A stretch of 39,252 nucleotides of DNA from Candidatus Binatia bacterium. GTDB lineage: Bacteria > Desulfobacterota > Binatia > HRBIN30 > CADEER01. The stretch spans positions 1 to 39,252 of the forward strand of contig JANQHZ010000535.1 in assembly GCA_028282445.1 (NCBI GenBank), in the 5' to 3' direction. The notes below the pieces were generated by a model, which saw only the letters and a program-made list of their open reading frames with translations, was not told where the DNA came from and did no database searches. The position numbers were made by a program, and so were the translations under genes. Positions 4,193 to 29,577 of the stretch are shown here, piece after piece. How positions within the stretch are numbered: the first letter of the stretch is position 1; each line of letters opens with the position of its first letter.

Positions 4193-4229
4193 ATCGTACG
4201 GACTGCGACGAGAGCGACCGGATAGCTCG

Positions 4230-6001: not shown

Positions 6002-7066
6002 ATGGCCACACCGCAGGAAATTCTCGAGGACCTCAAGAGCGTCAACTACCCCGGCTACACCCGCGATATCGTATCCTTCGGAATCGTTCGGGACATCGAG
6101 ATCGGCAGCGATACCGTGACCGTCACGCTCGCGCCCGGTGGCGCCAGCGAGCAAGCCGTCGCCGAAATCCGAGCCAATGTCGAGAGCCGTGTCCAGGCGT
6201 TGACCGGCGCCAAGGTCGAGATCACCGTCGACGCGCCACCGCCGCCGCGCCACCGCGAGCCGCCGCGCCGCAACGACATCCCGGGCGTCAAGAGCATCGT
6301 CGCCGTCGCCAGCGGCAAGGGCGGCGTCGGCAAGTCGACCGTCGCCGTGAACCTGGCCCTGGCCCTGCAGGCCAAGGGGAAGAAGGTCGGGCTACTCGAC
6401 GCCGACGTCTACGGACCGAGCGTCCCGCTCCTGCTCGGCATCGCCGAGTCGACCGCAGGCAGCGACGGCGACCGCATCCAGCCGATGAAGGCGCACGGAC
6501 TCACTGCGATTTCGATGGGCATGTTCATCCACCGCGGCCAACCGGTGATCTGGCGCGGTCCGATGATCAACAAGTTGCTGACGCAGTTCTTTCGCGAGGT
6601 CGACTGGGGCGAGCTCGACTACCTGATTCTCGACCTGCCGCCCGGAACCGGTGATGCGCAGCTCACGATCGCGCAGCAGGCGCCGCTCGCAGGTGGCGTC
6701 ATCGTCACCACGCCGCAAGACGTCGCCCTGCTCGACGTGCAACGCGGTATCGAGATGTTCAACCAGGTCGGTGCTCCGGTGCTCGGCGTCGTCGAGAACA
6801 TGTCGTTCCACGTCTGCCCCGAGTGCGGCAACCGCTCCGAGATCTTCGGACACGGGGGCGGCAAGAGCATGGCCGACAAATCCGAAATCGCCTTCCTCGG
6901 CGACATCCCGCTCGCCCGCACCATCCGCGAGACCAGCGACGACGGCAACCCGATCGTCGCATCCGCACCCGACGGCGAGCACGCCAAAGCCTTCGCCCAA
7001 CTCGCAACCCGCGTCGAAGAAGAGCTCGGCAAGCAAGCTCACGAAGAGCTACCGATGATTCACTGA
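6002..7066 (+). CDS. apbC: Mrp/NBP35-family Fe-S cluster carrier ATPase (ApbC) with N-terminal DUF59/MIP18-like domain
   Basis: 354-aa ORF. N-terminal ILEDLKSVNYPGYTRDIVSFGIV (DUF59-like), deviant Walker A VASGKGGVGKST, and the CPECG CxxC motif characteristic of Mrp/ApbC. Confidence 0.9.
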   Translation: MATPQEILEDLKSVNYPGYTRDIVSFGIVRDIEIGSDTVTVTLAPGGASEQAVAEIRANVESRVQALTGAKVEITVDAPPPPRHREPPRRNDIPGVKSIVAVASGKGGVGKSTVAVNLALALQAKGKKVGLLDADVYGPSVPLLLGIAESTAGSDGDRIQPMKAHGLTAISMGMFIHRGQPVIWRGPMINKLLTQFFREVDWGELDYLILDLPPGTGDAQLTIAQQAPLAGGVIVTTPQDVALLDVQRGIEMFNQVGAPVLGVVENMSFHVCPECGNRSEIFGHGGGKSMADKSEIAFLGDIPLARTIRETSDDGNPIVASAPDGEHAKAFAQLATRVEEELGKQAHEELPMIH

Positions 7067-7067
7067 A

Positions 7068-7135
7068 GAGGCTGAGGCGAAGGCTCAGGCGAGGCTGAGG
7101 ATGGTGGTCGCGCAAAGCGCGACGGCCCTCGCCGA
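7068..7135 (+). repeat. Palindromic REP/MITE-like element, copy 2 (left arm plus core only)
   Basis: GAGGCTGAGGCGAAGGCTCAGGCGAGGCTGAGGATGGTGGTCGCGCAAAGCGCGAC matches the left arm and core hairpin of copy 3. The right arm has degenerated. Starts 2 nt after the apbC stop. Confidence 0.65.
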
Positions 7136-7169
7136 GACCCAATGCAGCCCGCCCCAATAACTGAGTGGC

Positions 7170-7190
7170 CCCCCCTTTGAAAAAGGGGGG
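7170..7190. terminator. G/C-tract hairpin between convergent genes (possible bidirectional terminator)
   Basis: CCCCCCTT-TGAAA-AAGGGGGG is a perfect 8-bp stem with a 5-nt loop. It lies between the 3' ends of apbC (+) and the 630-aa gene (-). No clean U-run follows, so it is not a classical intrinsic terminator. Confidence 0.3.
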
Positions 7191-7297
7191 TTCGGGGGGA
7201 TTTTCAGATCGCCCCCTTCCGACGAGTCCCCCTCGGTCCAACTATTTCAAAAGGGGAGTTCGTTCGCGAAGCGGATTGGATCGCTTACCGTCGCCGC

Positions 7298-9190
7298 CTA
7301 CTCGATCCGAATGATCATCTGAGCCGGCGGCCCCGGATTACCCAGCACATCGAGCAGCCGCACGCTGACCAGCGTATCCCCTTCGGGGAACGCGAGGTTC
7401 TGCGACACCAGGCCACAGAACTGCACCGTCGAGTCATCGCTCGCGCAGCCGAAACCGCCGTCCGGCATCAGTAGACACGGCGAACCGCCGGCGCAGCGTC
7501 GACCGACCGTCGCGCCCTGGCCGTCGACGAAGCGGCAGCCGAGGTCGTTGGCGGCGTCGGTGATGTCCGGATCGTCCGCGAAGCTCGGCGGATTCACCGC
7601 CGGAACTCCACCGAGGACCGGTGGCGTGTCGTCGCACACCTCGGCGCTGCCGTTGCCGAGGGGTCGAGTGACCTGGACCTGGAGGTCGGGCGCGCCGATC
7701 AGCTTGAATGTGTTCAGGGCCGGTTGTCGAAAGCTGACTCCCGACATCCCCTCGACGACGATCGTAAAGCCGGAGCCGAACGGGCGCACGTAAACCGGGG
7801 CGCCGTCGATCACCTCGCCGGAGGGCTCGATGAGCAAGTCCGCCGCGGTGGCCAGTCCGAGATGAGTGATCTCGGGCCCGATCGGAACCGACGACGTCGG
7901 TGTCGGCGTCGGGGTTTCGGTACGGGTGCGCGTGAAGGTCGCCGTCGGCTCGGCGACGGTCGGGGTAGGCGTGCGGGTAAAGGTCCGCGTAAGCGTCGGC
8001 GTACGGGTCGGCGTCTCGGTCGGAGTCGACGTCGCCGGACGCGGCGTTCGCGTGCGTGTCGGCGTGTGCGTCGGCGTCCGCGTATTCGATGGAGTGCGGG
8101 TCGGCGTATCGGTACGCGTGCGGGTCGGTGTGTTCGAGGGAGTTCCCGGTCCCGGCGTATCCTCCGGCGTGTGCGTGCGGGTCGGGGTACGCGTCGGTGT
8201 CGGCGTCGCCGGTCGGCGCGTGTTGGTCCGGGTCGGCGTCGGTTGCCGACTGGTCGCCGTACGCGTCGGTGTGATCGTGTGGGTGTTGGTCGGAGTCCGC
8301 GTCAGGGTGCGGGTAAAGGTCGGCGTCCGCGTCGGCGTCGCCGTCGGCACCTCGGTATCGGTTGGTGTCGGGGACGGCGTGAAGGTCGGCGGAGGCGGGC
8401 CGCTGCCGACCCGGACGATGAGTCGTCCGACCGGCGACAGGGCGCCGGCGGCGTCGCGCACTTGCACCGTCACCGTCGTGTCGCCGTCGGGGAAACGAAT
8501 GAAACCGTCGACCGCGAGGCAGAACTGCACCCGGCTGCGAAAGCCGCGAACGAAGCCGGTCTGGCCGAACTCATCCTGCGTGCAGGTCGAGCTCGGAGTC
8601 GTCGCCACCGAGAAGCGACACGCCAGATCGTTGATCGAGTTCGAAATCTCCTGCGTGTAGTCGAAGACTTCGGGATCGACCGCCGGCACGCCGCGCGTGG
8701 TGTCGCACACCACCGGTTCGCCGTCGCCGAGGGTGCGATTGACCAGGAGTTGGAAATCCGGCCGCCGACGCGAGTCGTCCGGATCGTGGTCGAATACCGA
8801 CAGCCCGACCGGAGAGCCGTTCGGCCCCGGCGCCGCCTCGACCACGATGTTGAAGCCGAGTCCCGAGTTGAGAAAGTAGACGACCTCGCCACCCGGCAAT
8901 CGCCCGAGTGGCGGCGCGACCCGACCGTCCGGACTCGTAACCCCGAGAAAAGTCAGGTGCGGCCCGTGCGGAAAGGCGATCAGATCGGCGGCGCTGACCG
9001 CACCGTCGCGATTGATATCGGCGCCTTCGCAGGCCTGGTCGGCGCTGTAAACGCGGTCGACCAGGAGGCGGCGCTCGTCATCGGAAATGCTGCCGTCGCA
9101 ATCGACGTCGCCGATCGTCTGCCCGAGGGAGACCGAGGCGAAGACGATCGCAGCCAGCCCGGACAAGAAACGCTGAACCACCCCCATCAT
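7298..9190 (-). CDS. Secreted protein: signal peptide, dockerin/EF-hand-like repeats, two copies of an uncharacterised 4-Cys domain separated by a long PT-rich linker
   Basis: 630-aa ORF. Signal peptide MMGVVQRFLSGLAAIVFASVSLG, then DVDCDGSISDDE...DINRDGAVSAADLIAF. Domain copies span about aa 100-262 and 462-630. A (T/P)-rich linker (TPTRTPT...) spans about aa 265-440. Confidence 0.8.
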   Translation of the reverse strand: MMGVVQRFLSGLAAIVFASVSLGQTIGDVDCDGSISDDERRLLVDRVYSADQACEGADINRDGAVSAADLIAFPHGPHLTFLGVTSPDGRVAPPLGRLPGGEVVYFLNSGLGFNIVVEAAPGPNGSPVGLSVFDHDPDDSRRRPDFQLLVNRTLGDGEPVVCDTTRGVPAVDPEVFDYTQEISNSINDLACRFSVATTPSSTCTQDEFGQTGFVRGFRSRVQFCLAVDGFIRFPDGDTTVTVQVRDAAGALSPVGRLIVRVGSGPPPPTFTPSPTPTDTEVPTATPTRTPTFTRTLTRTPTNTHTITPTRTATSRQPTPTRTNTRRPATPTPTRTPTRTHTPEDTPGPGTPSNTPTRTRTDTPTRTPSNTRTPTHTPTRTRTPRPATSTPTETPTRTPTLTRTFTRTPTPTVAEPTATFTRTRTETPTPTPTSSVPIGPEITHLGLATAADLLIEPSGEVIDGAPVYVRPFGSGFTIVVEGMSGVSFRQPALNTFKLIGAPDLQVQVTRPLGNGSAEVCDDTPPVLGGVPAVNPPSFADDPDITDAANDLGCRFVDGQGATVGRRCAGGSPCLLMPDGGFGCASDDSTVQFCGLVSQNLAFPEGDTLVSVRLLDVLGNPGPPAQMIIRIE

Positions 9191-12007: not shown

Positions 12008-12091
12008 GGCCTCGTGGTGGAATTGGCAGACACGGCAGACTCAAAATCTGTTGCGGGCAACCGCGTGGGAGTTCAAGTCTCCCCGAGGCCA
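12008..12091 (+). tRNA. tRNA-Leu (anticodon CAA), class II with long variable arm; CCA not encoded
   Basis: Manual cloverleaf. Acceptor GGCCTCG/CGAGGCC; D-arm GTG-GAATTGGCAGA-CAC; anticodon stem GCAGA/TCTGT with loop CTCAAAA; variable arm GCGG-GCAA-CCGC; T-arm GGGAG-TTCAAGT-CTCCC; discriminator A. Confidence 0.85.
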
Positions 12092-12093
12092 CT
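12036..12093 (+). repeat. attL: 58-bp direct repeat (3' part of tRNA-Leu)
   Basis: CAGACTCAAAATCTGTTGCGGGCAACCGCGTGGGAGTTCAAGTCTCCCCGAGGCCACT is identical to 30996-31053. Confidence 0.9.
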
Positions 12094-12192
12094 TAATGAT
12101 TTAAAGGAGTTACGCCAGCACCGAGTGGAGGTCACGACTTCGCAACGGTCGCCGGGGAAGCAATAGGGAAGCAATAGTCGCCAAGACGCATC

Positions 12193-13140
12193 TCATGCGT
12201 TCCCCAGCGCGGCTTCCTGGCAAATTGAGAAGAGCCATTGTGGCAGGTCATCGTACGACCTCAACGTAACCTGAAAAACTCCTCGTTTTTCGAAAAGCCC
12301 CCTCCGGGGATCACTATCGCTGTCGCTGATTCGAACTCCCCAGAACGCATCTTTTCGCTCTGCGGAAGCGTGAGCTTTGTTGGCTGCCGCAAGGAGAGAT
12401 GTCAGGTTCTTGTCGCTCCCAGATAAGCCTAAGAACAGGCAGGTACTTGAGCACATGATGTCCAGGAGCCGCGCGCGCCAAGCGGATGCACTGCTCCCTA
12501 CGACTCGGTCATAGTGCAGTTGAGCAAACACGATCCCCTTCGATGGTGACGCAGCCGGATCCGCCGGGAGGAGACCGTGAGGATGGAGGACCGTTACGTC
12601 TGCTGACCGCTGCCAGCAGGGAAGTTCGCCCACAGACTCTACGCTCGCCCCGTAGTATCGGAGGTACGTCTCAAGCAGATCATCGAAGTTGAAAGACACC
12701 ACACTTGGCACACTGCCCCGCATCGAGGGCATCGTCAGAGCGCCGAGGGACGCAAGCAGCCCGTTCTTGCGAAGGGCATCGAAACTGAGGTCGACCCCCT
12801 CAAAGAGGGCACTACGCACCAGATCCGCCAGGGCCTCGTCTTGGCCTCCGCATCCTCGCATCAATAGCTCCTCGGCCAACTCCTCGGCGTCGAGACTATC
12901 GTCTGCAGGTTTCGGAATACCGGCACTTCTAAAGCATCTATCCACCAGTTCAGCCCACCCAGGCAGATCGTATCCGACGGAAACCCCAGCGCCGAGAAAA
13001 ACAGCCAGCGAACCGCTCCGAAGCTGACCAGCAAGAAAGTTGTTCAGCGTCTTTGCATTCTCAAAGCTGGCTCGGCGATTCATCCGCCCGATCGCTGTAG
13101 ATCGCCGCGGGACCATCTTGCCGTCTGAACGGACTCCCAC
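12193..13140 (-). CDS. SIR2_2-family (SIR2-like) protein, predicted NAD+-consuming effector
   Basis: 315-aa ORF. Motifs LAVFLGAGVSVGYDLPGWAELV, VVSFNFDDLLE (counterpart of TTNYD), VLHPHG (catalytic-His motif) and LFLGLSGSDKNL. GTG start at 13140 with GGGGAG about 10 nt upstream, only 4 nt after the upstream stop. Confidence 0.8.
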   Translation of the reverse strand: MGVRSDGKMVPRRSTAIGRMNRRASFENAKTLNNFLAGQLRSGSLAVFLGAGVSVGYDLPGWAELVDRCFRSAGIPKPADDSLDAEELAEELLMRGCGGQDEALADLVRSALFEGVDLSFDALRKNGLLASLGALTMPSMRGSVPSVVSFNFDDLLETYLRYYGASVESVGELPCWQRSADVTVLHPHGLLPADPAASPSKGIVFAQLHYDRVVGSSASAWRARLLDIMCSSTCLFLGLSGSDKNLTSLLAAANKAHASAERKDAFWGVRISDSDSDPRRGLFEKRGVFQVTLRSYDDLPQWLFSICQEAALGNA

Positions 13141-13144
13141 CTAT

Positions 13145-13786
13145 CTAGTCTCCCCACTTCAAGTAGCCACCGGACGCGAGGAAACTCAGTACGCTGTCCG
13201 TTCGCCGCAGGCTCCTCGCGCCACCATAGTGAAAACCGAGTTCCCCCTTAGAACTTATAGAAACGGCCTCCTGGCGAAGGCGTAAGTCCCGAAGATTAGC
13301 CCGATGGGGCGCAAGATGCGGAAGAATGCTCGAAAACAATTGCGCCTCGCCTAAATCGGCTCCGAACAGCGACATCGATCTAAGCGACTGCCCGAAACCA
13401 TCGACGCGTGCGTAGACACCGCTTAGGGAATAGTGCTGCGGCTGCTTGACCAAGTCTTCAACCAACTGTCGTACATTTACTCGAGGAGTCGACACCTTGT
13501 GACGAATTCCAATGACATCGATCAGCGCAGTGACCAAATCTGCATGCGACGAGACGAGCAAGAAGTGTTGGCCACTGGTCCGCAAAAGGTAGTCGTACTT
13601 AAACTCTCCGCCCTGAGGCTCAGGGCCTTCAACGAGGGGTGATGGATAGCTCAGCGTGAGCAGACACCATCCAGAACGCCCCACATCTCCCCGCACCAAC
13701 TTCTCGTGTCTCCAAACATCTCCACCCACTGGCACTTTCCAGCTCAGCAGATTGCCTGTGGCATTCGTTGGCGCTGCAAAGGTCAC
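13145..13786 (-). CDS. Hypothetical protein (213 aa), middle gene of the SIR2 cassette
   Basis: The ORF track gives 13145-13822. I prefer the GTG at 13784-13786. It overlaps the upstream TGA stop as GTGA and has GGAGG 5 nt upstream. No recognisable motif. Confidence 0.65.
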   Translation of the reverse strand: MTFAAPTNATGNLLSWKVPVGGDVWRHEKLVRGDVGRSGWCLLTLSYPSPLVEGPEPQGGEFKYDYLLRTSGQHFLLVSSHADLVTALIDVIGIRHKVSTPRVNVRQLVEDLVKQPQHYSLSGVYARVDGFGQSLRSMSLFGADLGEAQLFSSILPHLAPHRANLRDLRLRQEAVSISSKGELGFHYGGARSLRRTDSVLSFLASGGYLKWGD

Positions 13787-15672
13787 TCCGCCTCCGAAAA
13801 CGCCAACTGATGCAGGATCCAAACGGACCGCACCAGATGACGGGACTTGTCACCTGCCTGTGAGTCCATGAAGCTCAAAGGGTTAGAGACCCGGTCATCC
13901 GCAAACACATTGCCTGCGACTGCATCCTTGCGCGATCTCGCAACTGTCTCCGATCGCAAGAGCTTCTCGATTCTCGGCGAGTACAAGAAGTGTCGGACGA
14001 CCTGAACTAGCTCGCGGTGCCGGTCAAGCTGATCGAGAAAATGGGACTTGGACTTTCGAAGCTGGGAGCGAGCTTCCCTCACATACTTGTTTTTTGGGTA
14101 CTCCGTCTCCAGGTCCTTCAACAAGCGATCGAAAGTTCGACACACATGCTTTTGACCATCAGCCCTTCGAAGGTGGTTGGAGTAAAGCGCGCACAAGCTC
14201 CGGAGGATGTAATGAGCGATGCGGTCTTGGATGTTCGGTATGACTCCCCAACTGGCCCATATAGACTGAATGTAGCTCTTATCATCCCCGGCGTAGAAGT
14301 AGAGAAAGTCGAAAACATGCGTCATGACCTCGTTGACCTGACTGTGGTGCGCCCGAATCAACTCCCGCAATTTTTCAGCTTCGAGTTCATAACGGTCGGC
14401 GTCGCCGTCTTGATCGCACGAGCGCCATAACGCGAACACCAGAAAGGTCCTCAGATCATCGAATAGCTTCAATCGATCGGCACCAAAGAGATCGAGAACT
14501 TCCTCGATCTGGTTGTCGTCGTCGGGGTGGGGGAGCAGCGTACCCAGTACACCTTCAATCACGCGGTGGCTAATCTCGTGGGTAATTGTCAGCGGAGTCC
14601 AACTCACAGTGTTACAGCTACTGACCAACTCGAGGGGGGCGCTGAGCGAAACTTGCGTGCTGCGAAACCCATCGCGACCGCTGAAGCAAGTAATCAAGGG
14701 CAGAAGATCGTCAAGATCCCGCGGACTCGTCTCCAACTCGCCCTGTCCTGGGTGATCGAATAGGTGGTCTCGGCGCCAGTACGGGTCGTTTCTCGCGAGC
14801 TGAACAAGAGTCGGGTTTGGTCCATCAACCGCTCTAAGCATCTCGAGGCGATCAAAAATGCGAGCTTGGTCAAGCCTACACTCCATGAACTGCCGGACAC
14901 GGACTAGCGCCATTGAAGCCACGCCGATTCCGAGGAGAGAATGCGTCCAGTAATGACATTCCGATTCCAATATCGGACTGGTCCCCGAGTAGGCCTGCGA
15001 CGAGAAGCGCGAAATCGCCGCGTTTGCGGTCACAACCAACCCCTGATCGACGACCGAGTCGGTCTTCTTCAACGCCGCCCTGAAAGTTCGGTCGAACCTG
15101 ACAAAATCCTCACAAAGATCAGGAAAGCTCGGAAACGCGCGCTGGGCTCGACCGACAGCCGTCATCACCAGTGTAAGGTACTCGCGCGACGCAGGCTCAA
15201 GCGCGTCCTGCGTGGTTTCCAACGATTTCCGCAACTGGGCGGGGATCTCCGCCGGGTTTCTGCAGGGAGTAACCTTAGTCTCCACGATGCGCTCGCCGCG
15301 CAGACACCACTCCTCGAAAGGAACACCTAGCGCCCCAGTGAACTCCACAACACGGTCACGGATGGATCTCGAGTCACAGAGAAAGACGAGGTTGTACGCC
15401 CCTAGCGAAACAAAGAACTCTCCCTTCAAGGAGCGCGGCACGGCGCCTGGGAAAACGGGACCGCAGAAGACAATCCAGCGCTTTCTCCGGTCCGACAAGC
15501 TGAGCGCGGACGCACGGTCAATCGAGAAAATGGGGCTGACGCGGCTCGATGACTCCCACTTGGCAAGAACGTCATCGAATCGAGACTCTAAGGAGACTCT
15601 GTACTCAACCTTCCCGGCCTTGAAACACCTTCGGAGATGCAAGAAATGCGTCCCGCCGAGAAGTTTCCGCAT
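13783..15672 (-). CDS. Large hypothetical protein (629 aa) with a single HExxH motif (putative metallopeptidase-like or sensor protein)
   Basis: Long uninterrupted ORF. Contains LTITHEISHRVIEG (HExxH). The C-terminal half looks helical. No P-loop seen. Confidence 0.75.
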   Translation of the reverse strand: MRKLLGGTHFLHLRRCFKAGKVEYRVSLESRFDDVLAKWESSSRVSPIFSIDRASALSLSDRRKRWIVFCGPVFPGAVPRSLKGEFFVSLGAYNLVFLCDSRSIRDRVVEFTGALGVPFEEWCLRGERIVETKVTPCRNPAEIPAQLRKSLETTQDALEPASREYLTLVMTAVGRAQRAFPSFPDLCEDFVRFDRTFRAALKKTDSVVDQGLVVTANAAISRFSSQAYSGTSPILESECHYWTHSLLGIGVASMALVRVRQFMECRLDQARIFDRLEMLRAVDGPNPTLVQLARNDPYWRRDHLFDHPGQGELETSPRDLDDLLPLITCFSGRDGFRSTQVSLSAPLELVSSCNTVSWTPLTITHEISHRVIEGVLGTLLPHPDDDNQIEEVLDLFGADRLKLFDDLRTFLVFALWRSCDQDGDADRYELEAEKLRELIRAHHSQVNEVMTHVFDFLYFYAGDDKSYIQSIWASWGVIPNIQDRIAHYILRSLCALYSNHLRRADGQKHVCRTFDRLLKDLETEYPKNKYVREARSQLRKSKSHFLDQLDRHRELVQVVRHFLYSPRIEKLLRSETVARSRKDAVAGNVFADDRVSNPLSFMDSQAGDKSRHLVRSVWILHQLAFSEAE

Positions 15673-15684
15673 CGGGCAAGCGGC

Positions 15685-15927
15685 TCACTTCTTCTTTGCT
15701 ACTACCCGGTAGGCTGGATCCCCCGCCTTTGCTCGTCGAGCTTTCTCGAAAACAACGACTCGCGCGCCTGACTTGCGAGAAGCCTTCTTCGCAGCGGCCT
15801 TTGTGGATGCTGGCTCCAACACTGGCCCCGTAGCGCAGGTTGCGTCATGGTCGAAATGACCAAACTTCCGCTGCCCCACACCGTTGGCTAGCTTGATTGA
15901 TGGTAACAACTCACGGAGACGCAGCAT
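15685..15927 (-). CDS. Small basic protein (80 aa), first gene of the SIR2 cassette
   Basis: ATG at 15925-15927 with AGGGGA about 8 nt upstream. K/A/R-rich C-terminal half (KAAAKKASRKSGARVVVFEKARRAKAG...VVAKKK). Its stop lies 12 nt before the 629-aa start. Confidence 0.4.
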   Translation of the reverse strand: MLRLRELLPSIKLANGVGQRKFGHFDHDATCATGPVLEPASTKAAAKKASRKSGARVVVFEKARRAKAGDPAYRVVAKKK

Positions 15928-16041
15928 CGTTATTCCCCTTGAGCAAGCCGCAACAAACCACCATCTCCGCCTGCGAGTCGTCCGCCGACTCCACGTTTGC
16001 CCTTACACAAAAACCACAAAAATTCAACCCAATTCGACACG

Positions 16042-16068
16042 ATTATGCTAGCCGTGATCGAGAGTCAA
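16042..16068 (-). promoter_or_regulatory. Candidate sigma70-type promoter for the SIR2 cassette
   Basis: On the minus strand: TTGACT (16068-16063), a 15-nt spacer, then CATAAT (16047-16042). Lies about 115 nt upstream of the small-ORF ATG in an AT-richer non-coding stretch. The spacer is shorter than optimal. Confidence 0.3.
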
Positions 16069-16309
16069 CGCTTAACCGCCCACACGGCACAGCCCACGCT
16101 AGCCCAACCTCCCTTCGGTCGGGCGTCCCTTATACGATACTAGAGTCTAAGCACGCCATTCCGAGCTGTCCACCCAGGATAAGCAGCAGTCGCCGACGAA
16201 ACCGCGAGAACTGTCTCCCCCTGCTCCCGCGCCGGCTTCTGGTTCGATCCGAACCGCCGAATTCGTGAGCGGATCAGCGTTTTCTGCATGAGCGTTTTTC
16301 CTTTCCACA

Positions 16310-16857
16310 CTGGCACTTAGCGGTTCTAGCGGTTCGTCCGGCACATACCTGCGGAATGCCTCCTGCAAGTCGCAGCGGTTCTTAACCACGTACGCTGCCG
16401 CTGGCCCCACGCTGTTTCCGCCGGGATCTCGAGATTCCTGAGCAACCTCAATAAACCTGCGGGACCAAGGATCGCCCACGCGAGTAGTCGCGCCAAGGGG
16501 CCTCTTCTAGCGAGCGCAGGTAGTCCCAAGTGGAGCTTGTCGGCCGCCTGTCGGTTTCCATCTGGTCGAGCATACGCCGGACGTCCCCAAGAAATCGCAG
16601 CGCTGTCGCTCGATTCGCGCGACCTCTAGCAGCGTAGCGCCGCCGCGCGCGCCCTTCGGGGCCACGCCGAGCCCAGCAGCATCCGTGATGGCAGAGAAGC
16701 TACTCCAGTTGTCTGCCGCCCGGTCGTGCAACTCATCCGGAATGTCCGGGTCCGAGTCCTTCAGCGCCTCCACGATGTCTTCAGCCCATCGAGCAAGCTG
16801 CCGACCGAGATCGGCGGATGCTCCCACCACGGATCCGCTCCACACGCTTCTGAACAA
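16310..16857 (-). pseudogene. 3' remnant of a second primase/P-loop (DUF3631-like) gene, multiply frameshifted
   Basis: Three reading frames in turn align with the C-terminus of the intact 784-aa primase. DLGRQLARWAEDIVEALKDSDPDIPDELHDRAADNW aligns with DIRRQLTRFALDHIESLKGADPEVPDSLHDREADNW. DYLRSLEEAPWRDYSRGRSLVP aligns with DHLCSLEESPWGEYARGKPLTP. CDLQEAFRRYVPDEPLEPL aligns with SDLDDAFARYLADDPLDPL. Confidence 0.8.
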
Positions 16858-17127
16858 AGACGTCGCCTCATGCTTACCAAAGCGGATCGGTCGGACAGTG
16901 TGCCCGGAAGTTCACCGGTGCAAGCGATGCACTTCGCGCCCCATGTCGTTCAAACCCGAACAACATGGTTCTCCGAACGCGGTTACTCGCACATGGCCGA
17001 AGTTCAGAACCCCAGGCAGCTCGTTCGATTCGTGGTCGAACGTGTCGGCGCGGTCCGGATGGGCGCCCCCCACGCTCCATTCCATTTCGGCGACACCCCT
17101 ACGAACTTGGACGCGTCGAGTGTCACC

Positions 17128-18321
17128 CTAGTCTGTCTCAACATAGACGTCCGATTCAGTCCCCACTAGCGTCACGACTTGCCAGCCAGCCTTCCGAGCA
17201 TGCGCAGCGTCTAAGTTGCGCGGAGTAATCGCCAACGTCTGAAACGACCTCGCAGGATGGGAGAGGTGCTCTGCATAGCGCTCGAAGTGTGCCAACGGCC
17301 AGTGGGCCATCCCCCCATCCATCAACAGCAGCGTAATCGCACGCTCCGACCAGGCTCTGCAGGCAGCAATTGCAAACTCGCAGACGACCTGAGCCCTCTC
17401 GCTATGGGATAGAACCCGGAACGCCAATCCCGGCCGCGTGTTGGCCACGTCGGCGAGCAGAAGGAAACCTTCCTCGTCTCTGGAGAAACGAACATTCTTC
17501 ACAATGCCTGTACCGAACTCGTCAATGTAGTTCGGCAACTCTAGGACCACTCCCTCATGGAGCCCTAGCTGGGAAGATACAAACTCGAGATCATCGTGGT
17601 TGTTGGGAATCGTGTGCTCAGGCGCCACATACAAGGCTTGTAGGCCGATACTGGGCACCGGCGTAGGAACCCCCTGGTCGCGATATCTGATCGCGCCGCT
17701 CTGGAGGAGCTCGACAGAGGCAAACTTCGGTTGTGGATTGAAGTACTCTAGGCGAACCGTGAAGGGCCATGAGTTCCCGTCCCTGTTCCGCCACCTCCAA
17801 AGTCGTCCGGGTTCAGCAAACGCCGCGAGCCATTCACACAGTGCCGACTTGCCACTCGCACTCCCCCCCTTCAGCAGCGTTAGCTTCCCAAAGGATATCG
17901 AACTGCCTGGGCGTAGAACCGGGCCTCGCTCGACAATCAACCGATGAAGCCATCCACCAGGCAGCTCTCTGCCCTGTTGTTCCAACATCGCCCTAGTCTC
18001 TCGGAGCGATTTGTAGCTGCGCAGTACCGATGCTGGATACTCCTTGCCACTGTTCGCATCGACCACACGTGAGTGAACCGCGCACAGCCAAATTGCGTTC
18101 TGCGGGTCAGCCAGATCCGCTGCCGAGAGGCCCCCGGTTCCGCGCGGCCCCCCTGCCGCAGCACTATAGATGTGCGCAGCAACCCCTGTGTGAATCGCCC
18201 CAGACCCGCTAGTGTCGGGACCAACAGTCGGCCGATCACAGTCCGGGAAACTGCATCGATGCGCGGCCCGTTCGGCAACCAGCCTCTTCGTCGCTGCCGT
18301 AAACTCTACCCTCTCACCCAC
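17128..18321 (-). CDS. HNH endonuclease domain fused to an ABC/SMC-type P-loop ATPase domain
   Basis: 397-aa ORF with a GTG start preceded by GGAGGTGG. N-terminal motifs HRCSFPDC...GVAAHIYSAAAGGPRG...QNAIWLCAVHSRVVD (HNH). Walker A LLKGGSASGKS, ABC-signature-like LSHSERAQV, Walker B-like ITLLLMDGG. Confidence 0.8.
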   Translation of the reverse strand: MGERVEFTAATKRLVAERAAHRCSFPDCDRPTVGPDTSGSGAIHTGVAAHIYSAAAGGPRGTGGLSAADLADPQNAIWLCAVHSRVVDANSGKEYPASVLRSYKSLRETRAMLEQQGRELPGGWLHRLIVERGPVLRPGSSISFGKLTLLKGGSASGKSALCEWLAAFAEPGRLWRWRNRDGNSWPFTVRLEYFNPQPKFASVELLQSGAIRYRDQGVPTPVPSIGLQALYVAPEHTIPNNHDDLEFVSSQLGLHEGVVLELPNYIDEFGTGIVKNVRFSRDEEGFLLLADVANTRPGLAFRVLSHSERAQVVCEFAIAACRAWSERAITLLLMDGGMAHWPLAHFERYAEHLSHPARSFQTLAITPRNLDAAHARKAGWQVVTLVGTESDVYVETD

Positions 18322-18506
18322 AGGCCACCTCCAACCACGATTAACGCCGGCCTACCGTAGCGAACTCGGCCGAGGATGATGGCAGTGAAAGATGAATACC
18401 ACCACACAGGTAGGCAAGCCGTCATCGACACTCCGCTCGACTGATACGACACAGCTGTCGAGATTGGTCGGAACGGCGGTACCATCTGGCAGGTCGAGGA
18501 CAGCAA

Positions 18507-19856
18507 CTACACCAAGCCGAGTCTCGGCCGCATATGCGGCCGCCTGACTGGCAGGCTGATAGGCGGTTGGTCAATGCACTCAGACAGCGCCTTCGGTACG
18601 CCCTTCCGCACCTTGAGTTCTAGTGGGATATTGTCGAAGAGCAGGTCCACCTCCCCGCCAAACCTATCGGGCTTCTTGGAAACACGGCGCGGGAACACGT
18701 CGGTGAGGCGCTCGTACAGGAACGGCAGAAAGAACTGGTCCTCTATCTGACTATAAGCGCGATCGGCGTTCGCCTTGAGCCAGCGAGACGCGGGCTTACC
18801 CAGGAACGCCGGCTCTTCGAGCGTGAAGGTAACCTTGCGGATCAACCAAGCCGCGAGTTCCGCGAAAGAAGCTTCAAGATTTGGGCGGCCAAGAAACACA
18901 TAGCGTTTCTGGAGATCAGCGTGGACCCTATCGTAGATCGAAAGTTGAATCTCACTCAGCTGTTGGCGGACTTCCGCGGAAAGACCTCGGGATGCAGTGT
19001 CGTAAATGTTGTGATGACAGGGGCGTCGAATCAAGTATCGAGTCTCTAGGTCGAAAGGCGATACAGGCGAACTCGATAACCAGAGTTCTTGAATATCGAG
19101 AAGACCGCAAAGCTCGAGATACAATGGCAGCAGTACACGCTCCGCCGGACCGCATGATCCCAACGCGGGCATCGCAGCTCCGTCACTGAACACGGAGATC
19201 GAGTGCCGAAAAGGTATCTCGGCACTCGTAAGCGAGAATTCCTGCTCCCCTGTGTGTGCTTGCCGCGCATCAAGAAACGCTTGCAGAAGATCAAGCAGTT
19301 TACGGTAGTCCACCCTTGGGCTCATGTTGCCCCCGGGTAGTCGCTTCTGAATCTTGTTCACAAAGTCGGAGCGTAGGCTGAGCCGCGTTCTCAGGTGCTG
19401 TTGCAGGAAAGAGCGAAGCTTTCGTGGCGAGAACGTTGCAGCAAATCTTCCCGGCACCGGCTCTTCGAAGCGATCGATTGAGGAGGGCAGGCCGACGCTG
19501 TCCCCATCCCTCAAGAATTCAAGCCGAGTTCGAATTACATCGGTGTAGTACTCAAGGGCTTCGCGGCGAGTGGTCTTTGCTTGAGCACCTGCGGGCAGCG
19601 AGGCGCCCAAGGCATCGACGAACTCCTCGGTCATCCGATCGGAGTAGTCAAAATCCACACGCGCAGCGGCCTCGGCCTCGGCCGGTGTTCCAAATTGCGG
19701 GAACACATGCCCCAGATTGAACTCGACGGTGCGCGGCGGCTCGCCTTTCGGGTCCTCCACACGGGCTAGCAGCAGCCGTGCGAAGAACAGCTCATCCAAG
19801 TCTTCGAAGCGAACCAGACGCTGCCTCTCGAAAACACGGTCCTCGGCGCTGGTCAT
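18507..19856 (-). CDS. Hypothetical protein with C-terminal PD-(D/E)xK nuclease-like core; apparently frameshifted near the 3' end (true end probably 18352)
   Basis: 449-aa ORF. GGEVDLLFDNIPLELKVRK fits the D...ExK motif. The expected QxxxY motif (SQAAAYAAETRLGVVAVLDL...) appears only in the -1 frame, which is open from 18570 to the TAG at 18352-18354. Confidence 0.7.
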   Translation of the reverse strand: MTSAEDRVFERQRLVRFEDLDELFFARLLLARVEDPKGEPPRTVEFNLGHVFPQFGTPAEAEAAARVDFDYSDRMTEEFVDALGASLPAGAQAKTTRREALEYYTDVIRTRLEFLRDGDSVGLPSSIDRFEEPVPGRFAATFSPRKLRSFLQQHLRTRLSLRSDFVNKIQKRLPGGNMSPRVDYRKLLDLLQAFLDARQAHTGEQEFSLTSAEIPFRHSISVFSDGAAMPALGSCGPAERVLLPLYLELCGLLDIQELWLSSSPVSPFDLETRYLIRRPCHHNIYDTASRGLSAEVRQQLSEIQLSIYDRVHADLQKRYVFLGRPNLEASFAELAAWLIRKVTFTLEEPAFLGKPASRWLKANADRAYSQIEDQFFLPFLYERLTDVFPRRVSKKPDRFGGEVDLLFDNIPLELKVRKGVPKALSECIDQPPISLPVRRPHMRPRLGLV

Positions 19857-20197
19857 CGCAGCCGATGGAAACAGGAAACGTGCATATCCTCAATACGAGA
19901 TCCGGCAATGGAACCTCTCGTACGTGACGAGCGACACCTGTGGTCAGAGTCCTTACGACCGCTACAGCGGGGCCGGCACCGAGGAGGATCGGTAAGGCCT
20001 CCAAGTCCCCAAAAAGCCGCGGACCGGCGACCGAGATCACTTGGAGGGGGACCGAAGAGGCCCAATAGTCCCATCGAAGTTGGATGGAAGGGGCTTCGAT
20101 GGGGCTCCTGGGGGCCGTAGCAAACGGGCGGGGACCAGGAGTGGAGAGTTGTTTGGGTAACGGGCGCCGCGGAGCGGGACAATCTCGATTGCAGCGA

Positions 20198-20596
20198 TCA
20201 CGCCCGGCTCAGAAGGAAACCACAACGCCGGCACCAGTACACGTCTCGACGCATCAAGAGCAGCCAAGAGATCAAACTCGCTACGAGCGCGACGATAACG
20301 GCACCGACGAAACCGGCCGCGACAGACAACCAATGGCCGATTCCAAACTCGGGTCGAGGGTCGAGGATAAGTACCGCCACCGTCAGTACCGCACCGATTA
20401 CCGCGAGAGCGGATGGTATCAGTAGGATTGCTCCGATAGTTCGGATAACCGAGTTGAAGACCGGAATATCGGTGGCGATCATCGACGACCCCGCTCGGCA
20501 AGCTTGGCAATCCAAGCGACCGTTCCACCTCTTCTTCGGTGTGACAACTTGATCGACCAGCTCGACTGGCGCCCCGGCCTTCTGGTTCGCCGTCAT
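20198..20596 (-). CDS. Small membrane protein with two TM helices flanked by CxxC pairs (split zinc ribbon, LITAF-like arrangement)
   Basis: 132-aa ORF. CQAC, then two hydrophobic helices (IRTIGAILLIPSALAVIGAVLTVAVLIL and WLSVAAGFVGAVIVALVASLISWLLL), then WCRRCG. Confidence 0.65.
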   Translation of the reverse strand: MTANQKAGAPVELVDQVVTPKKRWNGRLDCQACRAGSSMIATDIPVFNSVIRTIGAILLIPSALAVIGAVLTVAVLILDPRPEFGIGHWLSVAAGFVGAVIVALVASLISWLLLMRRDVYWCRRCGFLLSRA

Positions 20597-20629
20597 CGTT
20601 GGCCACGGCGGGAGACAATCCCCGACACG

Positions 20630-20842
20630 CTAGGTCGACGGGAATAGATCCCGGATCGGTACACGGAACGCGCGCGCCAGATCAGAGATCGCCTGCAGCG
20701 TTGGATTTCGCTCGCCGCGCTCGATACCGCCGATGTAGGTCCAGTGTTTGCCCGATCGCTCGGCGAGTTGCTCTTGCGTCCAGCCACGTGACTTCCTCAG
20801 TCGTCTGACCGTTTCTCCGAAGCGCTGCTGGACCGTAGGCAC
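20630..20842 (-). CDS. XRE-family helix-turn-helix transcriptional regulator
   Basis: 70-aa ORF with a GTG start. FGETVRRLRKSRGWTQEQLAERSGKHWTYIGGIERGERNPTLQAISDLARAF is a canonical HTH_XRE sequence. Confidence 0.85.
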   Translation of the reverse strand: MPTVQQRFGETVRRLRKSRGWTQEQLAERSGKHWTYIGGIERGERNPTLQAISDLARAFRVPIRDLFPST

Positions 20843-21013
20843 GGCCGAAGCACACTTCGATGATGCCTATTCGTCTAGAGACTATAAGTATTATCGGCTT
20901 CCACTCCAGTCAATTCCCAGGGGAAACGCGCGAAGAACCGCTATTGCTGCTAGAGGGTGGATATCGTGTCGGTTTCGCGGCGCGCGTAGCGCTAGCGTCC
21001 GCCCTTCGTAGCG

Positions 21014-23368
21014 CTACTCGGTCGAATCATCTGCGCTCTGCCGCGGGGACGATAGCGGACCTAGCGGATCTAGCGGATCGTCGGCGAGGTATCGCGCAAA
21101 GGCATCGTCGAGGTCACTACGATCATACCCCCGCAGGTTCTGGCCGACGCCACCGAGTTGTTTCGATCGGGCACCGAATCGCTTCAGCAACTTCGCCAGC
21201 CCCCGGGGCGTTAGTGGCTTGCCGCGCGCGTATTCACCCCACGGCGACTCTTCGAGCGAGCACAGATGGTCGAGAATCTCTTGTGTCGCGGCGCGATCGG
21301 TACCACGGAGGTCAAACATATCCTTGAGATCTCGGAGGAGCTGGATACCAGACCCGTCGTTGGAATCCGCTGCGGTCTTCCGTACGAGTGCAGCCCTTCG
21401 AGCGCGGTTGGCCCATTCGCCTCCGGCTTCATCCGCGATGGCAAACATCGGCCGCCAGTTGTCAGCCTCGCGGTCATGAAGCGAGTCGGGCACCTCGGGA
21501 TCGGCGCCCTTGAGAGACTCGATGTGGTCGAGCGCAAATCGCGTCAATTGACGCCGGATGTCGCTGAGCTCGGCACGAATACTATCCAAGCGGAGACGTT
21601 TGCCCCTCTCCGACGTAAGGCGGCGGCGCAACTCGATTCCGACCGATCGATCAGCCAGCGTGTCCGGGAGAGTTCCGATACAAGCGACACACTTGGCCCC
21701 AAAGGTATAGAAACAATGAAGATCGTGATTCTCCCCTTGCACCCTGATCGCATAAGCATTGGCGCGGACATGGCCGGAATTGAGAATCCCCCGCAGGTCG
21801 TTCGAATCGTGGATAAACGTGTCGACCTCGTCGACGATCAATGTCGGGTTGAAGCGATCCACCGCTCGATACACCGCTGCTGGAGATAGATTTGAGGCCG
21901 ATAGCGGCCGAGCAACGACCGCCCCGATCAGCGTCAAGAGCGTGGTCTTCCCGCACCTCTTCTCCGGGGACGTGATCGCTAGCATCGGCGACACCTCCGC
22001 CGCGTCCACAACGTATGTGAAGACGGTCCACAGGCTAAGCGTTTCGGCGCCGCCTTCGGGAAGGACCACATAGGTCGAGAACACGCGAGCAAGAGAGTCC
22101 AGCAGCTCCGATCCGTCGACCGGCTCGGGCCACGGTTCGGGGAGATCTTCAACGATGCTCGGCGATTCCGGTTCGCCTGCCGGCTCTGACATGGCGGCAT
22201 CGATCAGCTTCGCTGGTGCTTGGACCCCAAGTCCCTTCAGCAGCTTCGCGACGTGATCCCTCAGAACTGCCCGCTTGACGGAGTCCTTCCCCTTCGAGAT
22301 CTCGCCCAGGTGCCTGAGGAACCTCTCGATGGCCGCAGGGTCGGCGTCGCCTTTCGACTCCGGCAGCCCCGCCTGGCGAAGCAACGCATCCAGATCCTCG
22401 GTACTCTCCCACGACGCACCTTCGAAACCAGAATCTACCGACCCAAGATCAGCCGCCACGTAGGGAGTTGCGGAGACCAGTAGATCCCGGAGATCGGCCT
22501 CGCGTACCCCGGTAGGAAGCGGGTCGGCCAGGTCCCACTTCGTCGGGAATCGAGACAGTTCCCGAACAATCCTCGCTGCGGTCGCTCCCGCCTTCTGAGC
22601 CAGGGCTGCAACACTCTCCGCGTATGCCACGCCGTCCTCATCGGCATCGGGCCAGATGACGACATCCCGACCCTCGAGCGAACTCCAGTCCGCCTTGCTC
22701 GCTGCCCGGGCTCCACCGGGAGAGGTCACGACACAGAGATCCGGAAACAGGTTCCGCGCGGCATCGGCGGCCTTCTCTCCCTCGACCACCAGCACGTCGC
22801 GCAAGTGCCCTGCAGCCAGATGGTCTTGGCCGTACAGCGGCTTGGGAAACGGCCAGGATCTCCACCGCCAAGAATAGGACCCCTTCCTCGACCAAAGCGT
22901 AAGGGGCCGAATCGCTTTCTCTCCGTTGGACAGGTCGAAACGGTACACGTATCCGAGCACCCGCCCGCCTGAATCCCGGTACTCGTGAACCTCCGCTGGC
23001 CTACCGAGCTCGGGGTGGGTTTCCGGCCGCGGTGGACCATCGTTCGGAACAGTAAAGATCGGCTTCCACACGGTCTTGGGCGATGCGAGACGCTTCGAAG
23101 TCTGCGGGCGCCCATTCCCCCGCGCGAACGAAGCGAGGCCCAGGACTTCCAAGAGCTCGGTCGGCCCCCCGCGCTTTCCGCAACCATGACAGAGCCAAAC
23201 CCCGCGGCCGCTGTTGCAGCTGAAAGAAGGATTCTCGTCTGCGTGATCCGGGAACGGGCACCTGAGGCTCCATTGGTCACCCGACCTCCGCCCCCCCAAA
23301 GATCTGAGCGCTTCTTCGATCCGCCGCGTAAGCTCGGCGGACAACTCTCCTTCACTAGGTCTTCCCAT
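21014..23368 (-). CDS. Primase / replication protein: CHC2 zinc finger, Toprim, P-loop NTPase (DUF3631-like C-terminus)
   Basis: The ORF track extends to 23650, but that extension overlaps the AlpA gene. I use the ATG at 23366-23368 (MGRPSEGE...). Motifs: CPFPDHADENPSFSC...WLCHGCGKRG (CHC2); VLVVEGEKAADA...VIWPDADEDG (Toprim); SPEKRCGKTT and TLIVDEVD (Walker A and B). Confidence 0.85.
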   Translation of the reverse strand: MGRPSEGELSAELTRRIEEALRSLGGRRSGDQWSLRCPFPDHADENPSFSCNSGRGVWLCHGCGKRGGPTELLEVLGLASFARGNGRPQTSKRLASPKTVWKPIFTVPNDGPPRPETHPELGRPAEVHEYRDSGGRVLGYVYRFDLSNGEKAIRPLTLWSRKGSYSWRWRSWPFPKPLYGQDHLAAGHLRDVLVVEGEKAADAARNLFPDLCVVTSPGGARAASKADWSSLEGRDVVIWPDADEDGVAYAESVAALAQKAGATAARIVRELSRFPTKWDLADPLPTGVREADLRDLLVSATPYVAADLGSVDSGFEGASWESTEDLDALLRQAGLPESKGDADPAAIERFLRHLGEISKGKDSVKRAVLRDHVAKLLKGLGVQAPAKLIDAAMSEPAGEPESPSIVEDLPEPWPEPVDGSELLDSLARVFSTYVVLPEGGAETLSLWTVFTYVVDAAEVSPMLAITSPEKRCGKTTLLTLIGAVVARPLSASNLSPAAVYRAVDRFNPTLIVDEVDTFIHDSNDLRGILNSGHVRANAYAIRVQGENHDLHCFYTFGAKCVACIGTLPDTLADRSVGIELRRRLTSERGKRLRLDSIRAELSDIRRQLTRFALDHIESLKGADPEVPDSLHDREADNWRPMFAIADEAGGEWANRARRAALVRKTAADSNDGSGIQLLRDLKDMFDLRGTDRAATQEILDHLCSLEESPWGEYARGKPLTPRGLAKLLKRFGARSKQLGGVGQNLRGYDRSDLDDAFARYLADDPLDPLGPLSSPRQSADDSTE

Positions 23369-23379
23369 CGCCCGGCCAC

Positions 23380-23580
23380 CTACTCCCCAGCGAAGGGTTC
23401 CGACGTGCTCTTCCGAACCGATTCGGTGAAGAAATCGTCGAGGTCTTCGATGCGATAGCGAACGGCAGACCCGAGCTTCGCAAACAGCGGCCCTCCGCCT
23501 TGCCATCGCCATTTCTGCAGGGTCCGGACCGATAGGCCGAGATACTCGGCCGCCTCTCGCTCCGACAGTATGTCCTTCAT
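23380..23580 (-). CDS. AlpA/excisionase-family helix-turn-helix DNA-binding protein
   Basis: 66-aa ORF. LSEREAAEYLGLSVRTLQKWRWQGGGPLFAKLGSAVRYRIEDLDDF is the typical excisionase/AlpA MerR-like HTH. Its stop lies 11 nt before the primase start. Confidence 0.8.
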   Translation of the reverse strand: MKDILSEREAAEYLGLSVRTLQKWRWQGGGPLFAKLGSAVRYRIEDLDDFFTESVRKSTSEPFAGE

Positions 23581-23646
23581 GTACGCCTCCTTCTGGCGTG
23601 CCCGAGATGTGGTAGGAGCACGCTGACGACGGAGGTCGTAGCGGAG

Positions 23647-24597: not shown

Positions 24598-24927
24598 AGC
24601 GACCCCTCCACCATGCAGCGTAGACGAACGGTGGTGAGGAGTCATCGGATGCACAGCGAAGAGTTCGAGAGCAGTCGGTAACACCAAAAGTAGCACCTGC
24701 TTTGTCACAATTGGTTGTTCCGAGAGGGCTATAGGGGGGCAGCCCCACCTTCCGAGAGGGTTACGTGGAAAACCGACACCGCTTTCTCCCGAGCGATGCC
24801 GGACACCTTGCGCGACCGGGCGACCAAGCAGCTTGGACCGGTAAGAGTTCGTAACCCCGGCGCCACTTCTCGGGTCCTCGAACTTCTGCCACGCAGCAAA
24901 TCACGACCAAATCTCATCGCCTCAATC

Positions 24928-26922: not shown

Positions 26923-27037
26923 GCGGCTAGCGCTACCCCACATCGCAACCACGCACGCGGCCCACGACCCCGGGAAGGGCGGGCCGCTAACCGTTCGGAC
27001 AGGCAGCTGACCAACACACTTCGGCGGGATCAAGACG

Positions 27038-28453: not shown

Positions 28454-28529
28454 GAAATCCGGCTTTACAGCGTCCCAGAAACAACCGCAAAGCCAAGAAA
28501 GCTGTTCCGAAAGAGCCTGTCGAGGCGAG

Positions 28530-29108: not shown

Positions 29109-29160
29109 GTCGACAAGAGGGCCTCGCCTGTGGCTGGGGCTGCGATTCGCCCGCTCAGGA

Positions 29161-29496: not shown

Positions 29497-29577
29497 ATGT
29501 CGCTACCTATTCCGGATGATCTAAGGTTCTCTCAGAACGCAGGAAGGTGTCCACCTTGGCGGAGCCTCCGCCGACGG

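Follow-up and report, generated by a model that had tools for sequence, protein, structure and literature searches.

We analysed a cassette of four genes, named A to D here, that occupies positions 12193-15927 on the minus strand of the window, the whole 39,252-nt stretch of contig JANQHZ010000535.1 from a Candidatus Binatia bacterium. Gene A (15685-15927; ATG at 15927 to TGA at 15685) encodes 80 amino acids (aa), gene B (13783-15672; ATG at 15672 to TGA at 13783) encodes 629 aa (~72 kDa), gene C (13145-13786; GTG at 13786 to TAG at 13145) encodes 213 aa, and gene D (12193-13140; GTG start at 13140) encodes a SIR2-domain protein of 315 aa. The four genes are co-directional and abut each other. 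They had been reported as open reading frames (ORFs) in a preliminary description of this DNA, and all were recovered on the minus strand. An independent gene caller, run on a Logan contig representing another assembly of the same DNA, again yielded proteins of 80, 629, 213, and 315 aa.

The gaps at the A-B junction (12 nt) and the C-D junction (4 nt) were read from the sequence as previously described, as was the GGGGAG that lies inside the 3' end of gene C, ahead of D. At the B-C junction, the 4-nt GTGA overlap (13783-13786) was found as expected, but the GGAGG upstream of the GTG of C is 4 nt away from it, not 5 nt. A candidate sigma-70 promoter (16042-16068, minus strand) was located ~115 nt upstream of gene A; it consists of TTGACT (16068-16063), a 15-nt spacer, and CATAAT (16047-16042). 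The two strings are present as described, but a consensus scan did not support them: promoter-like sites in the region were no commoner than in shuffles, and a 15-nt spacer falls outside the scanned range of 16-18 nt. Because of this spacer and the lack of excess over shuffles, we treat the promoter as a candidate only. No intrinsic terminator was found 3' of D, and an Rfam scan that included the 5' leader detected a transfer RNA (tRNA) gene as the sole element.

Conservation of the gene array

The distribution of the cassette was assessed via a search anchored on B in 185,579 species genomes and Joint Genome Institute metagenomes, with C and D then located by profiles. For the synteny counts, we used full-length B genes followed by at least 1.75 kb of sequence, of which there were 73 distinct ones. 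B, C, and D followed each other in the same order and on the same strand in 68 of these 73 loci, and the co-occurrence of the three larger genes as neighbours, which the preliminary description had proposed to test, extends over more than 10 phyla. Hosts belonged to Pseudomonadota, Myxococcota, Acidobacteriota, Lentisphaerota/PVC, SAR324, Gemmatimonadota, Ignavibacteria, Chloroflexota, Planctomycetota, and Verrucomicrobiota, among others. A search anchored on C gave the same array; in one apparent exception, from Bradyrhizobium, the final 28 codons of B are still present. The tight spacing of the genes is conserved as well. The B-C junction was overlapping or within 7 nt in 19 of 21 other loci, and the C-D junction ranged from -22 to +17 nt in all 21.

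When pairwise identities were compared between genes, the matrices for B, C, and D were correlated with each other (r = 0.78-0.87, Mantel p = 0.001). B, C, and D co-evolve as one functional unit, and the four-gene operon is horizontally mobile between distant lineages.

A small number of loci deviate from the standard array. Two divergent ones (L026:5932-8990 and L112:1202-4208) encode a B of 673-704 aa followed directly by D, without C; a small upstream ORF is present in L026. D was lost in L028 and L052. In the metagenomic locus L095, the SIR2 slot is occupied by a gene (3285-4748, plus strand) for a 487-aa KAP-family P-loop NTPase, which starts 26 nt after C and matched Pfam (5e-28) and the PADLOC model PDC-S20 (1e-46). 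This was the sole candidate for an effector swap that we found. It may represent such a swap or, equally, an adjacent PDC-S20 single-gene candidate system left next to C after the loss of D. In L028, a Croceibacterium locus without SIR2, C is followed by a convergent 201-aa ORF (6913-7518, minus strand) that begins MASEEIRDFVVLGLDIDGYSERS. By eye, this start looks like a class III nucleotidyl-cyclase motif; no match to the ORF was found in Pfam or PADLOC.

The four encoded proteins

Protein D matched the Pfam family SIR2_2 (PF13289) over residues 146-288 with a score of 52.3 bits (cut-off 24.5, E = 8.2e-14). The hallmarks by which it had been assigned to this family in the preliminary description were all located, namely FLGAGVS starting at residue 48, PGW at 60, FNFDD at 150, HPHG at 186, and FLGLSGSD at 236. 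Residue conservation was scored over 28 cassette-encoded homologues. Within the dinucleotide-binding loop GAGVS (G50-S54; 12979-12993, minus strand, as are all motifs below), G50 and G52 were conserved in all 28. The same was true of N151 and D153 in the catalytic Asn motif N151-F-D153 (12682-12690), which aligns with N107-Y-D of KomC, and of H186 in the catalytic His motif H186-P-H188-G189 (12574-12585), with H188 conserved in 27. In KomC, the counterparts of N151 and H188 are N107 and H146; it is H146 that has been replaced in PDB entry 9xvc, which is named KomC(H146N). The catalytic Asn and His, proposed earlier as a check on the SIR2 assignment, are therefore in place (N151, H186/H188; 27-28 of 28).

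The nearest solved relative of D was KomC of the Kongming system (E = 7e-5), followed by DSR2 and ThsA; human FAM118B was also matched. PADLOC yielded weak sub-family matches to two ThsA models (34 and 32 bits) and to Dsr1 (18.9 bits), and the NCBIfam Dsr1 model scored 17.4 bits against a cut-off of 1400. No domain besides SIR2 was found in D. SIR2_2/SIRim proteins constitute the immune-associated clade of the SIR2 family (preprint 10.1101/2024.09.18.613514). Given its conserved residues, single domain, and weak sub-family matches, D looks like a stand-alone, catalytically competent member of the immune-type SIR2 proteins that belongs to none of the modelled systems. Its family membership and genomic context lead us to predict that it is an NADase effector.

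Protein B belongs to a large family. At least 190 full-length homologues were found in a collection clustered at 90%, and a profile search of 1.84 billion representatives detected 875 clusters (50% level), of which 617 had E-values below 1e-30. Nearly all members are 580-670 aa long and share a single architecture, and those carrying a name are all labelled 'hypothetical protein'. The closest relative of the B encoded in the window is 43% identical to it. No model matched B in Pfam, PADLOC-DB 2.0.0 (2023), NCBIfam (June 2026; E <= 0.1), or PHROGs, the libraries used throughout. A comparison of the B profile with PDB sequences returned chance matches only, and hhalign detected no internal homology between the three regions of B and proteins A, C, and D.

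An AlphaFold2 model of B based on a 26-sequence alignment (predicted local distance difference test score (pLDDT) 88.7, predicted template modelling score 0.90) has a beta-rich N-terminal domain (approximately residues 1-135) and a large helical body that carries the conserved metal-site motifs. The HExxH motif (H365-E366-I-S-H369, HEISH; 14566-14580) is situated at the start of a predicted helix (362-379). It was present in 57 of 57 family members and at least 95% conserved across 70 loci, and 51 of the 57 also fit a PROSITE-type zinc-protease pattern. The preliminary description was right about this motif but had considered it the only one in the protein, and two more are conserved. The first is E448-x3-H452-x2-D455 (14308-14331) in helix 432-459, at least 95% conserved, whose residues are candidates for a third metal ligand or for catalysis; an acidic/His motif of this kind occurs 73-107 residues past HExxH in every parsable member. 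The second is the SGRDG loop (S331-G335; 14668-14682) in the beta-hairpin before the HExxH helix, which is invariant or nearly so.

Across the 70 loci, conservation in B is concentrated in three blocks (residues 221-260, 321-380, and 441-500). The 33 positions that are at least 95% conserved include S331, R333, G335, T362, T364, H365, E366, H369, E448, H452, and D455, and the variable segments are 101-160, 281-320, 381-440, and 501-580. Such a distribution looks typical of the active site of an enzyme, and HExxH is the motif of zincins.

Protein C (isoelectric point (pI) 9.3) evolves fastest of the large genes' products, with a mean pairwise identity of 0.24 versus 0.30 for B and 0.34 for D. 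A single-sequence word-index query returned one homologue, and an alignment query was needed to obtain more. In the most divergent clade, where B is ~25% identical, a protein of 276-289 aa encoded in the C slot is a remote homologue of C (hhalign probability 91%, E = 9e-7). The invariant residues of C are Gly, Trp, and Tyr only and include no catalytic-looking motif, in agreement with the preliminary description, which had recognised no motif in the 213-aa protein. A candidate fold did emerge, however, when the AlphaFold2 model of C (pLDDT 89.8) was compared with known structures using Foldseek. The matches were CENP-L (1.6e-4) and RdgC (3e-4; the range for both extends to 9e-4, probability 1.0), TBP (~1e-2), and RnlA (0.19). 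As judged from the model, the fold of C resembles a duplicated, two-lobed TBP-like alpha/beta saddle. Proteins with a TBP-like fold are nucleic-acid binders or scaffolds, so C may be either. No sequence-level relative with this fold was found for C in Pfam or among PDB sequences. Profile matches of C to designed beta-solenoid proteins among PDB sequences were rejected as low-complexity.

Protein A is basic (pI 10.8). It is composed of an N-terminal helix-like segment ending in G-x-R, the motif G-H-F-D-H-D-A..G-P, a low-complexity basic linker, and a degenerate C-terminal D-P-x-T-G-E. The GHFDHDA core (residues 23-29; 15841-15861) was defined by homologue alignment. In other loci, a small upstream ORF is usual, with a degenerate form of the motif such as GFLDHEA, GALDHLP, or MFDRDGNP. 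A is a conserved fourth component of the cassette, not an incidental ORF. Like B, A and C have no PADLOC, Pfam, NCBIfam, or PHROG model. Scans of A, B, and C against Pfam, PADLOC, and NCBIfam found no P-loop, SLOG, HerA, Argonaute, or STAND domain, in line with what had been reported for the partners of D.

Mobile and defence surroundings

The cassette occupies the tRNA-proximal 3.8 kb of an integrative island and is 100 nt away from the end of a tRNA-Leu(CAA) gene (12008-12092, plus strand; ARAGORN and Rfam), which is the integration site of the island. An exact-repeat search identified a 58-bp direct repeat of the 3' half of this gene, with attL at 12036-12093 (plus strand) and the identical attR at 30996-31053. 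A tyrosine recombinase (integrase) gene (29578-30816) is located just inside the attR repeat, and a P4-alpha-type primase/DUF3631 gene lies at 21014-23650. Based on the att repeats, the integrase, and the primase, the stretch from ~12094 to 31053 is an integrative island of ~19 kb. The G+C content drops right after tRNA-Leu from ~0.66-0.68 to 0.54-0.60. A third att copy, which would mean tandem islands, was not found. The tRNA gene, the repeats, and the integrase agree with the tRNA-proximal island position reported for the cassette earlier.

Several other genes in the window deserve mention. A 107-116-aa ORF at ~16507-16857 (minus strand), between the cassette and an HNH gene, matched only DUF3631, the C-terminal domain of the full-length primase encoded at 21014-23650. 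It looks like the remnant of a second replication gene, a hint that the tRNA-proximal end of the island underwent recombination or accretion in the past. The HNH gene (17128-18321, minus strand) encodes a 397-aa protein with an N-terminal HNH-like nuclease domain followed by a Walker-A-like GGSASGKS. It matched the PADLOC models for the cyclic oligonucleotide-based anti-phage signalling system (CBASS) effector endonuclease, SAVED-HNH, and PDC-M68A (E ~1e-18), and also three PHROGs of unknown function. The adjoining gene (18507-19856, minus strand) encodes a 449-aa protein with no family match, and the two may form a second, separate defence pair within the island. The HNH gene was considered as a fifth component of the cassette and rejected, as it showed zero co-occurrence with B in other loci. 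Outside the island, a 245-aa S-adenosylmethionine-dependent methyltransferase (36701-37438, minus strand) matched PADLOC mad2 (2.6e-17), which is probably a generic match to the methyltransferase domain.

The cassette resides in similar surroundings elsewhere. In Methylomonas, it adjoins an integrase gene and type I restriction-modification (R-M) genes disrupted by an insertion sequence (IS). In Achromobacter, it is cargo of a Tn7-like element and stands beside MazE, PemK, and TacA genes. A mini-island of Ca. Thiodiazotropha, which encodes an integrase, a Phage_GPA replication protein, and an HTH_17 protein, has the cassette as its visible cargo. In further loci, the neighbours are an Mrr-type nuclease or a set of ThsB-TIR, TIR_2, and SLOG-like genes. 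We also scanned 108 ORFs flanking the cassette in 28 loci with PADLOC; strong matches were obtained for BrxHI, which immediately follows the cassette in L001, and for BrxD, type III and type II R-M, PtuA, PDC-M01A, and PDC-S37. Together, the island in the window and the integrases, Tn7-like element, and defence genes elsewhere are consistent with the mobile-element cargo setting that had been proposed.

Cassette genes were found in various stages of decay. In a Polyangiaceae metagenome-assembled genome (L002:4328-6689), a Mutator-family IS transposase interrupts the SIR2 gene. D is frameshifted in a metagenome contig (L057:4222-4964). In Bradyrhizobium (L043:7906-7989), B is cut to its last 28 codons upstream of intact C and D. 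Such decay is typical of costly or toxic genes. The same Bradyrhizobium locus carries, beside an integrase, a cluster (L043:10400-14841, minus strand) encoding QueC, FRG, nucleoside 2-deoxyribosyltransferase, Ogg-HhH, and pP_pnuc_2 domains; this locus may serve DNA modification, for example of the 7-deazaguanine type, or defence.

Proposed function and alternatives

Family membership and genomic context make a defence role of some kind likely for the operon. More specifically, we somewhat favour the reading that the cassette is an abortive-infection system with a SIR2 effector, in which B, C, and A would sense infection and gate the NADase.

We compared the cassette with the SIR2 systems listed in 2026 reviews, which are DSR1/2, Thoeris, SPARSA, SIR2-HerA, and Kongming only. 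As far as can be judged from sequence, it shares its type of effector and, presumably, its logic with these systems and lacks the defining features of each. DSR1 and DSR2 likewise combine a SIR2 NADase with a large, mostly helical, non-NTPase sensor part and operate by abortive infection, as the cassette is predicted to do; the DSR2 matches in the PDB cover the SIR2 core of D. However, DSR1 and DSR2 are single polypeptides of ~1000-1275 aa with an N-terminal SIR2 domain, whereas the SIR2 protein of the cassette is a separate 315 aa. The HExxH of B is invariant, no similarity between B and the sensor domains of the DSR proteins was detected, and genes C and A come in addition. KomC of Kongming resembles D in being a small stand-alone SIR2 subunit, whose activation needs partners from the same operon. 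Those partners, the deaminase KomA and the HAM1-like NTP pyrophosphatase KomB, have no counterparts in the cassette, nor do B, C, and A have any in Kongming, and unlike in Kongming there is no evidence of a nucleotide signal. Type I Thoeris also employs a SIR2 NADase effector, and the best PADLOC matches of D were to ThsA models, but neither the SLOG/Macro sensor domain of ThsA nor the TIR gene ThsB was detected in A-D (Pfam, PADLOC). In SIR2-HerA and SPARSA, both composed of several subunits, a partner complex restrains the SIR2 NADase and also serves to activate it; the ATPase of the former, the Argonaute/APAZ of the latter, and the STAND protein of AVAST type 5 were all looked for in cassette proteins A-C (Pfam, PADLOC, NCBIfam) and not found.

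Two groups of HExxH proteins outside the SIR2 systems offer further parallels. Lit, a zinc protease of the HExxH type, is switched on by a peptide from the phage, and gasdermins are activated by proteases. The logic proposed for the cassette is that of Lit-like abortive infection, with an infection-triggered HExxH metalloenzyme leading to death or dormancy; B, however, showed no sequence or structural relation to such proteases in the Pfam and Foldseek searches, and the killer in the cassette would be a separate SIR2 NADase. The second group is that of the alpha-ketoglutarate-dependent HExxH peptide hydroxylases (IPR026337; PMC12636437). Here, as in the cassette, an HExxH protein is co-encoded with a small peptide bearing conserved Asp and His. 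B had no NCBIfam match to them (the presence of the model in the release is assumed), and the cassette has none of the transporters or maturases typical of clusters for ribosomally synthesised and post-translationally modified peptides. Unlike in such clusters, its neighbours are the SIR2 gene and defence islands.

The scheme that we infer, from the defence role and the NADase activity of D to the assembly of a complex, the proteolytic step, and its trigger, would run as follows. In the uninfected cell, a complex of A, B, C, and D would hold D inactive. A phage cue would be recognised via the variable helical surfaces of B, via C, or via both, and the metal site of B would become active. B would then cleave or otherwise process an inhibitory element, for which A is the prime candidate, and the freed D would deplete NAD+ and abort the infection. 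C would serve as a TBP-like adaptor, possibly by contacting nucleic acid or by linking B with D. Candidates for the phage-recognition surfaces are the helical segments in which B varies and the fast-evolving C. That the metal site of B does the switching, most simply by cleaving A or another inhibitor, is an idea we advance tentatively. With respect to the type of enzyme, a protease is the leading, unproven reading of B.

Several observations weigh against this scheme. When 26 aligned B homologues were searched individually against Pfam (E <= 1), ten unrelated single matches and zero peptidases were obtained. Foldseek found no zincin for the B model; the best E-values were 0.24 (PDB) and 0.89 (BFVD), with FtsH at E ~3. 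The term protease for B thus rests on a short motif, since neither a peptidase sequence nor a zincin fold was matched. HExxH proteins can also be Fe/alpha-ketoglutarate oxygenases, which hydroxylate or oxidatively cleave small peptides (PMC12636437). As no peptidase family was matched and such oxygenases exist, we describe B as a putative metal-dependent enzyme of a new family. The structural matches of C have modest TM-scores (0.38-0.50, or 0.25-0.50 over the whole set of RdgC, CENP-L/Iml3, TBP, and the N-terminal domains of RnlA), and since L026 and L112 lack C, this protein is not strictly essential to the pairing of B with D. A match to the A profile directly upstream of B was found in only 38 of 85 loci, and the His residues of the A motif vary outside one clade. 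Many flanking genes are ordinary housekeeping genes, and the defence neighbours are qualitative examples. Finally, no B homologues were found in PLSDB (72,556 plasmids), INPHARED phages, or IMG/VR contigs.

The alternative that survives best retains SIR2-based defence and makes B something other than a protease, either a scaffold with a structural metal, comparable to the helical sensor of DSR2, or an Fe/alpha-ketoglutarate oxygenase. In the oxygenase version, B would modify or oxidatively cleave A at its Asp/His motif, with the modified peptide acting as a regulator of D. The lack of sequence or fold similarity between B and any peptidase speaks for this alternative, as does the mostly helical make-up of B, with variable helical segments like those of a binding domain. 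In addition, the alpha-ketoglutarate-dependent HExxH enzymes hydroxylate Asp and His of small precursor peptides (PMC12636437), and the best-conserved motif in A is F-D-H-D. On the other hand, B had no NCBIfam match at E <= 0.1 that would make it an oxygenase, the His residues of its supposed substrate differ between clades, and the motif is surrounded by ~30 invariant polar residues, which favours catalysis over a purely structural metal. Overall, we regard this alternative as unlikely. A bolder version of the favoured reading, to which we assign a slightly smaller chance still, is that B represents a structurally new class of HExxH proteins that cleaves or oxidises A upon infection and, with the TBP-like C, turns D on. 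If true, this would be an immune switch gated by peptide processing that has no counterpart among the described SIR2 systems, and the KAP NTPase of L095 would show that A-B-C is a portable sensor driving different effectors.

Alternatively, the cassette could be an addiction module resembling toxin-antitoxin (TA) systems, or a module for conflict between mobile elements, with D as the toxin, A, B, or C as its neutraliser, and phage defence as a side effect at most. The cassette is always on or near mobile elements (islands, a Tn7-like element, a small integrase-bearing island), its effector gene has been inactivated repeatedly, and classical TA genes adjoin it in Achromobacter. Yet four genes over ~3.7 kb with a 72-kDa enzyme-like protein are atypical for TA, the neighbours are mainly R-M, bacteriophage exclusion (BREX), Septu, and TIR defence genes, the known SIR2_2 systems are anti-phage, and none of the 72,556 plasmids, where addiction modules abound, carried the cassette. 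We consider an addiction module improbable.

The chance that the cassette has already been named is similarly small. Hundreds of candidate systems were published in 2023-2026 and the PADLOC release used dates from 2023, so the cassette might figure in a supplementary candidate list or among DefenseFinder or PADLOC models added after 2023. Nevertheless, no PADLOC, Pfam, NCBIfam, or PHROG model exists for A, B, or C, the homologues that carry names are uniformly labelled hypothetical, and the reviews of 2026 are confined to the five systems compared above. No system with the architecture of the cassette, or with an HExxH or TBP-like partner, was found in the literature including these reviews, in which subscription journals were thinly covered. 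The literature and the PADLOC results, with nothing for A, B, and C and weak sub-family matches for D, thus concur with the preliminary description, which had not recognised the cassette as a named system. A non-immune regulatory operon, with D as a deacylase or ADP-ribosyltransferase and B, C, and A as substrate-processing partners, draws on the presence of both activities in the SIR2 superfamily and on the NADase activity of D being a prediction, but it is highly implausible, as D belongs to SIR2_2 (PF13289) and not to the classical sirtuins, its nearest solved relatives are defence NADases, and the patchy cross-phylum spread and island location are unlike those of a housekeeping regulator.

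The cassette combines an effector and a presumed logic of a known kind with a putative sensor/regulator module that is new and structurally orphan. Candidate defence systems that await testing are numerous, and among them the cassette is unusually well supported by comparative data and contains a large protein without a recognisable fold. Its absence from screens centred on Escherichia coli and from plasmid and phage databases shows gaps in the catalogues of defence systems. It offers a testable defence system, a possible new class of metalloenzymes, and a test case for the silencing and release of sirtuins. Few immune effectors, from bacteria to humans, have been reused as widely as SIR2 NADases, which are coupled to a different sensor in every system known. 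To these, the cassette would add a widespread sensor module composed of three unannotated families, found mostly in environmental bacteria.

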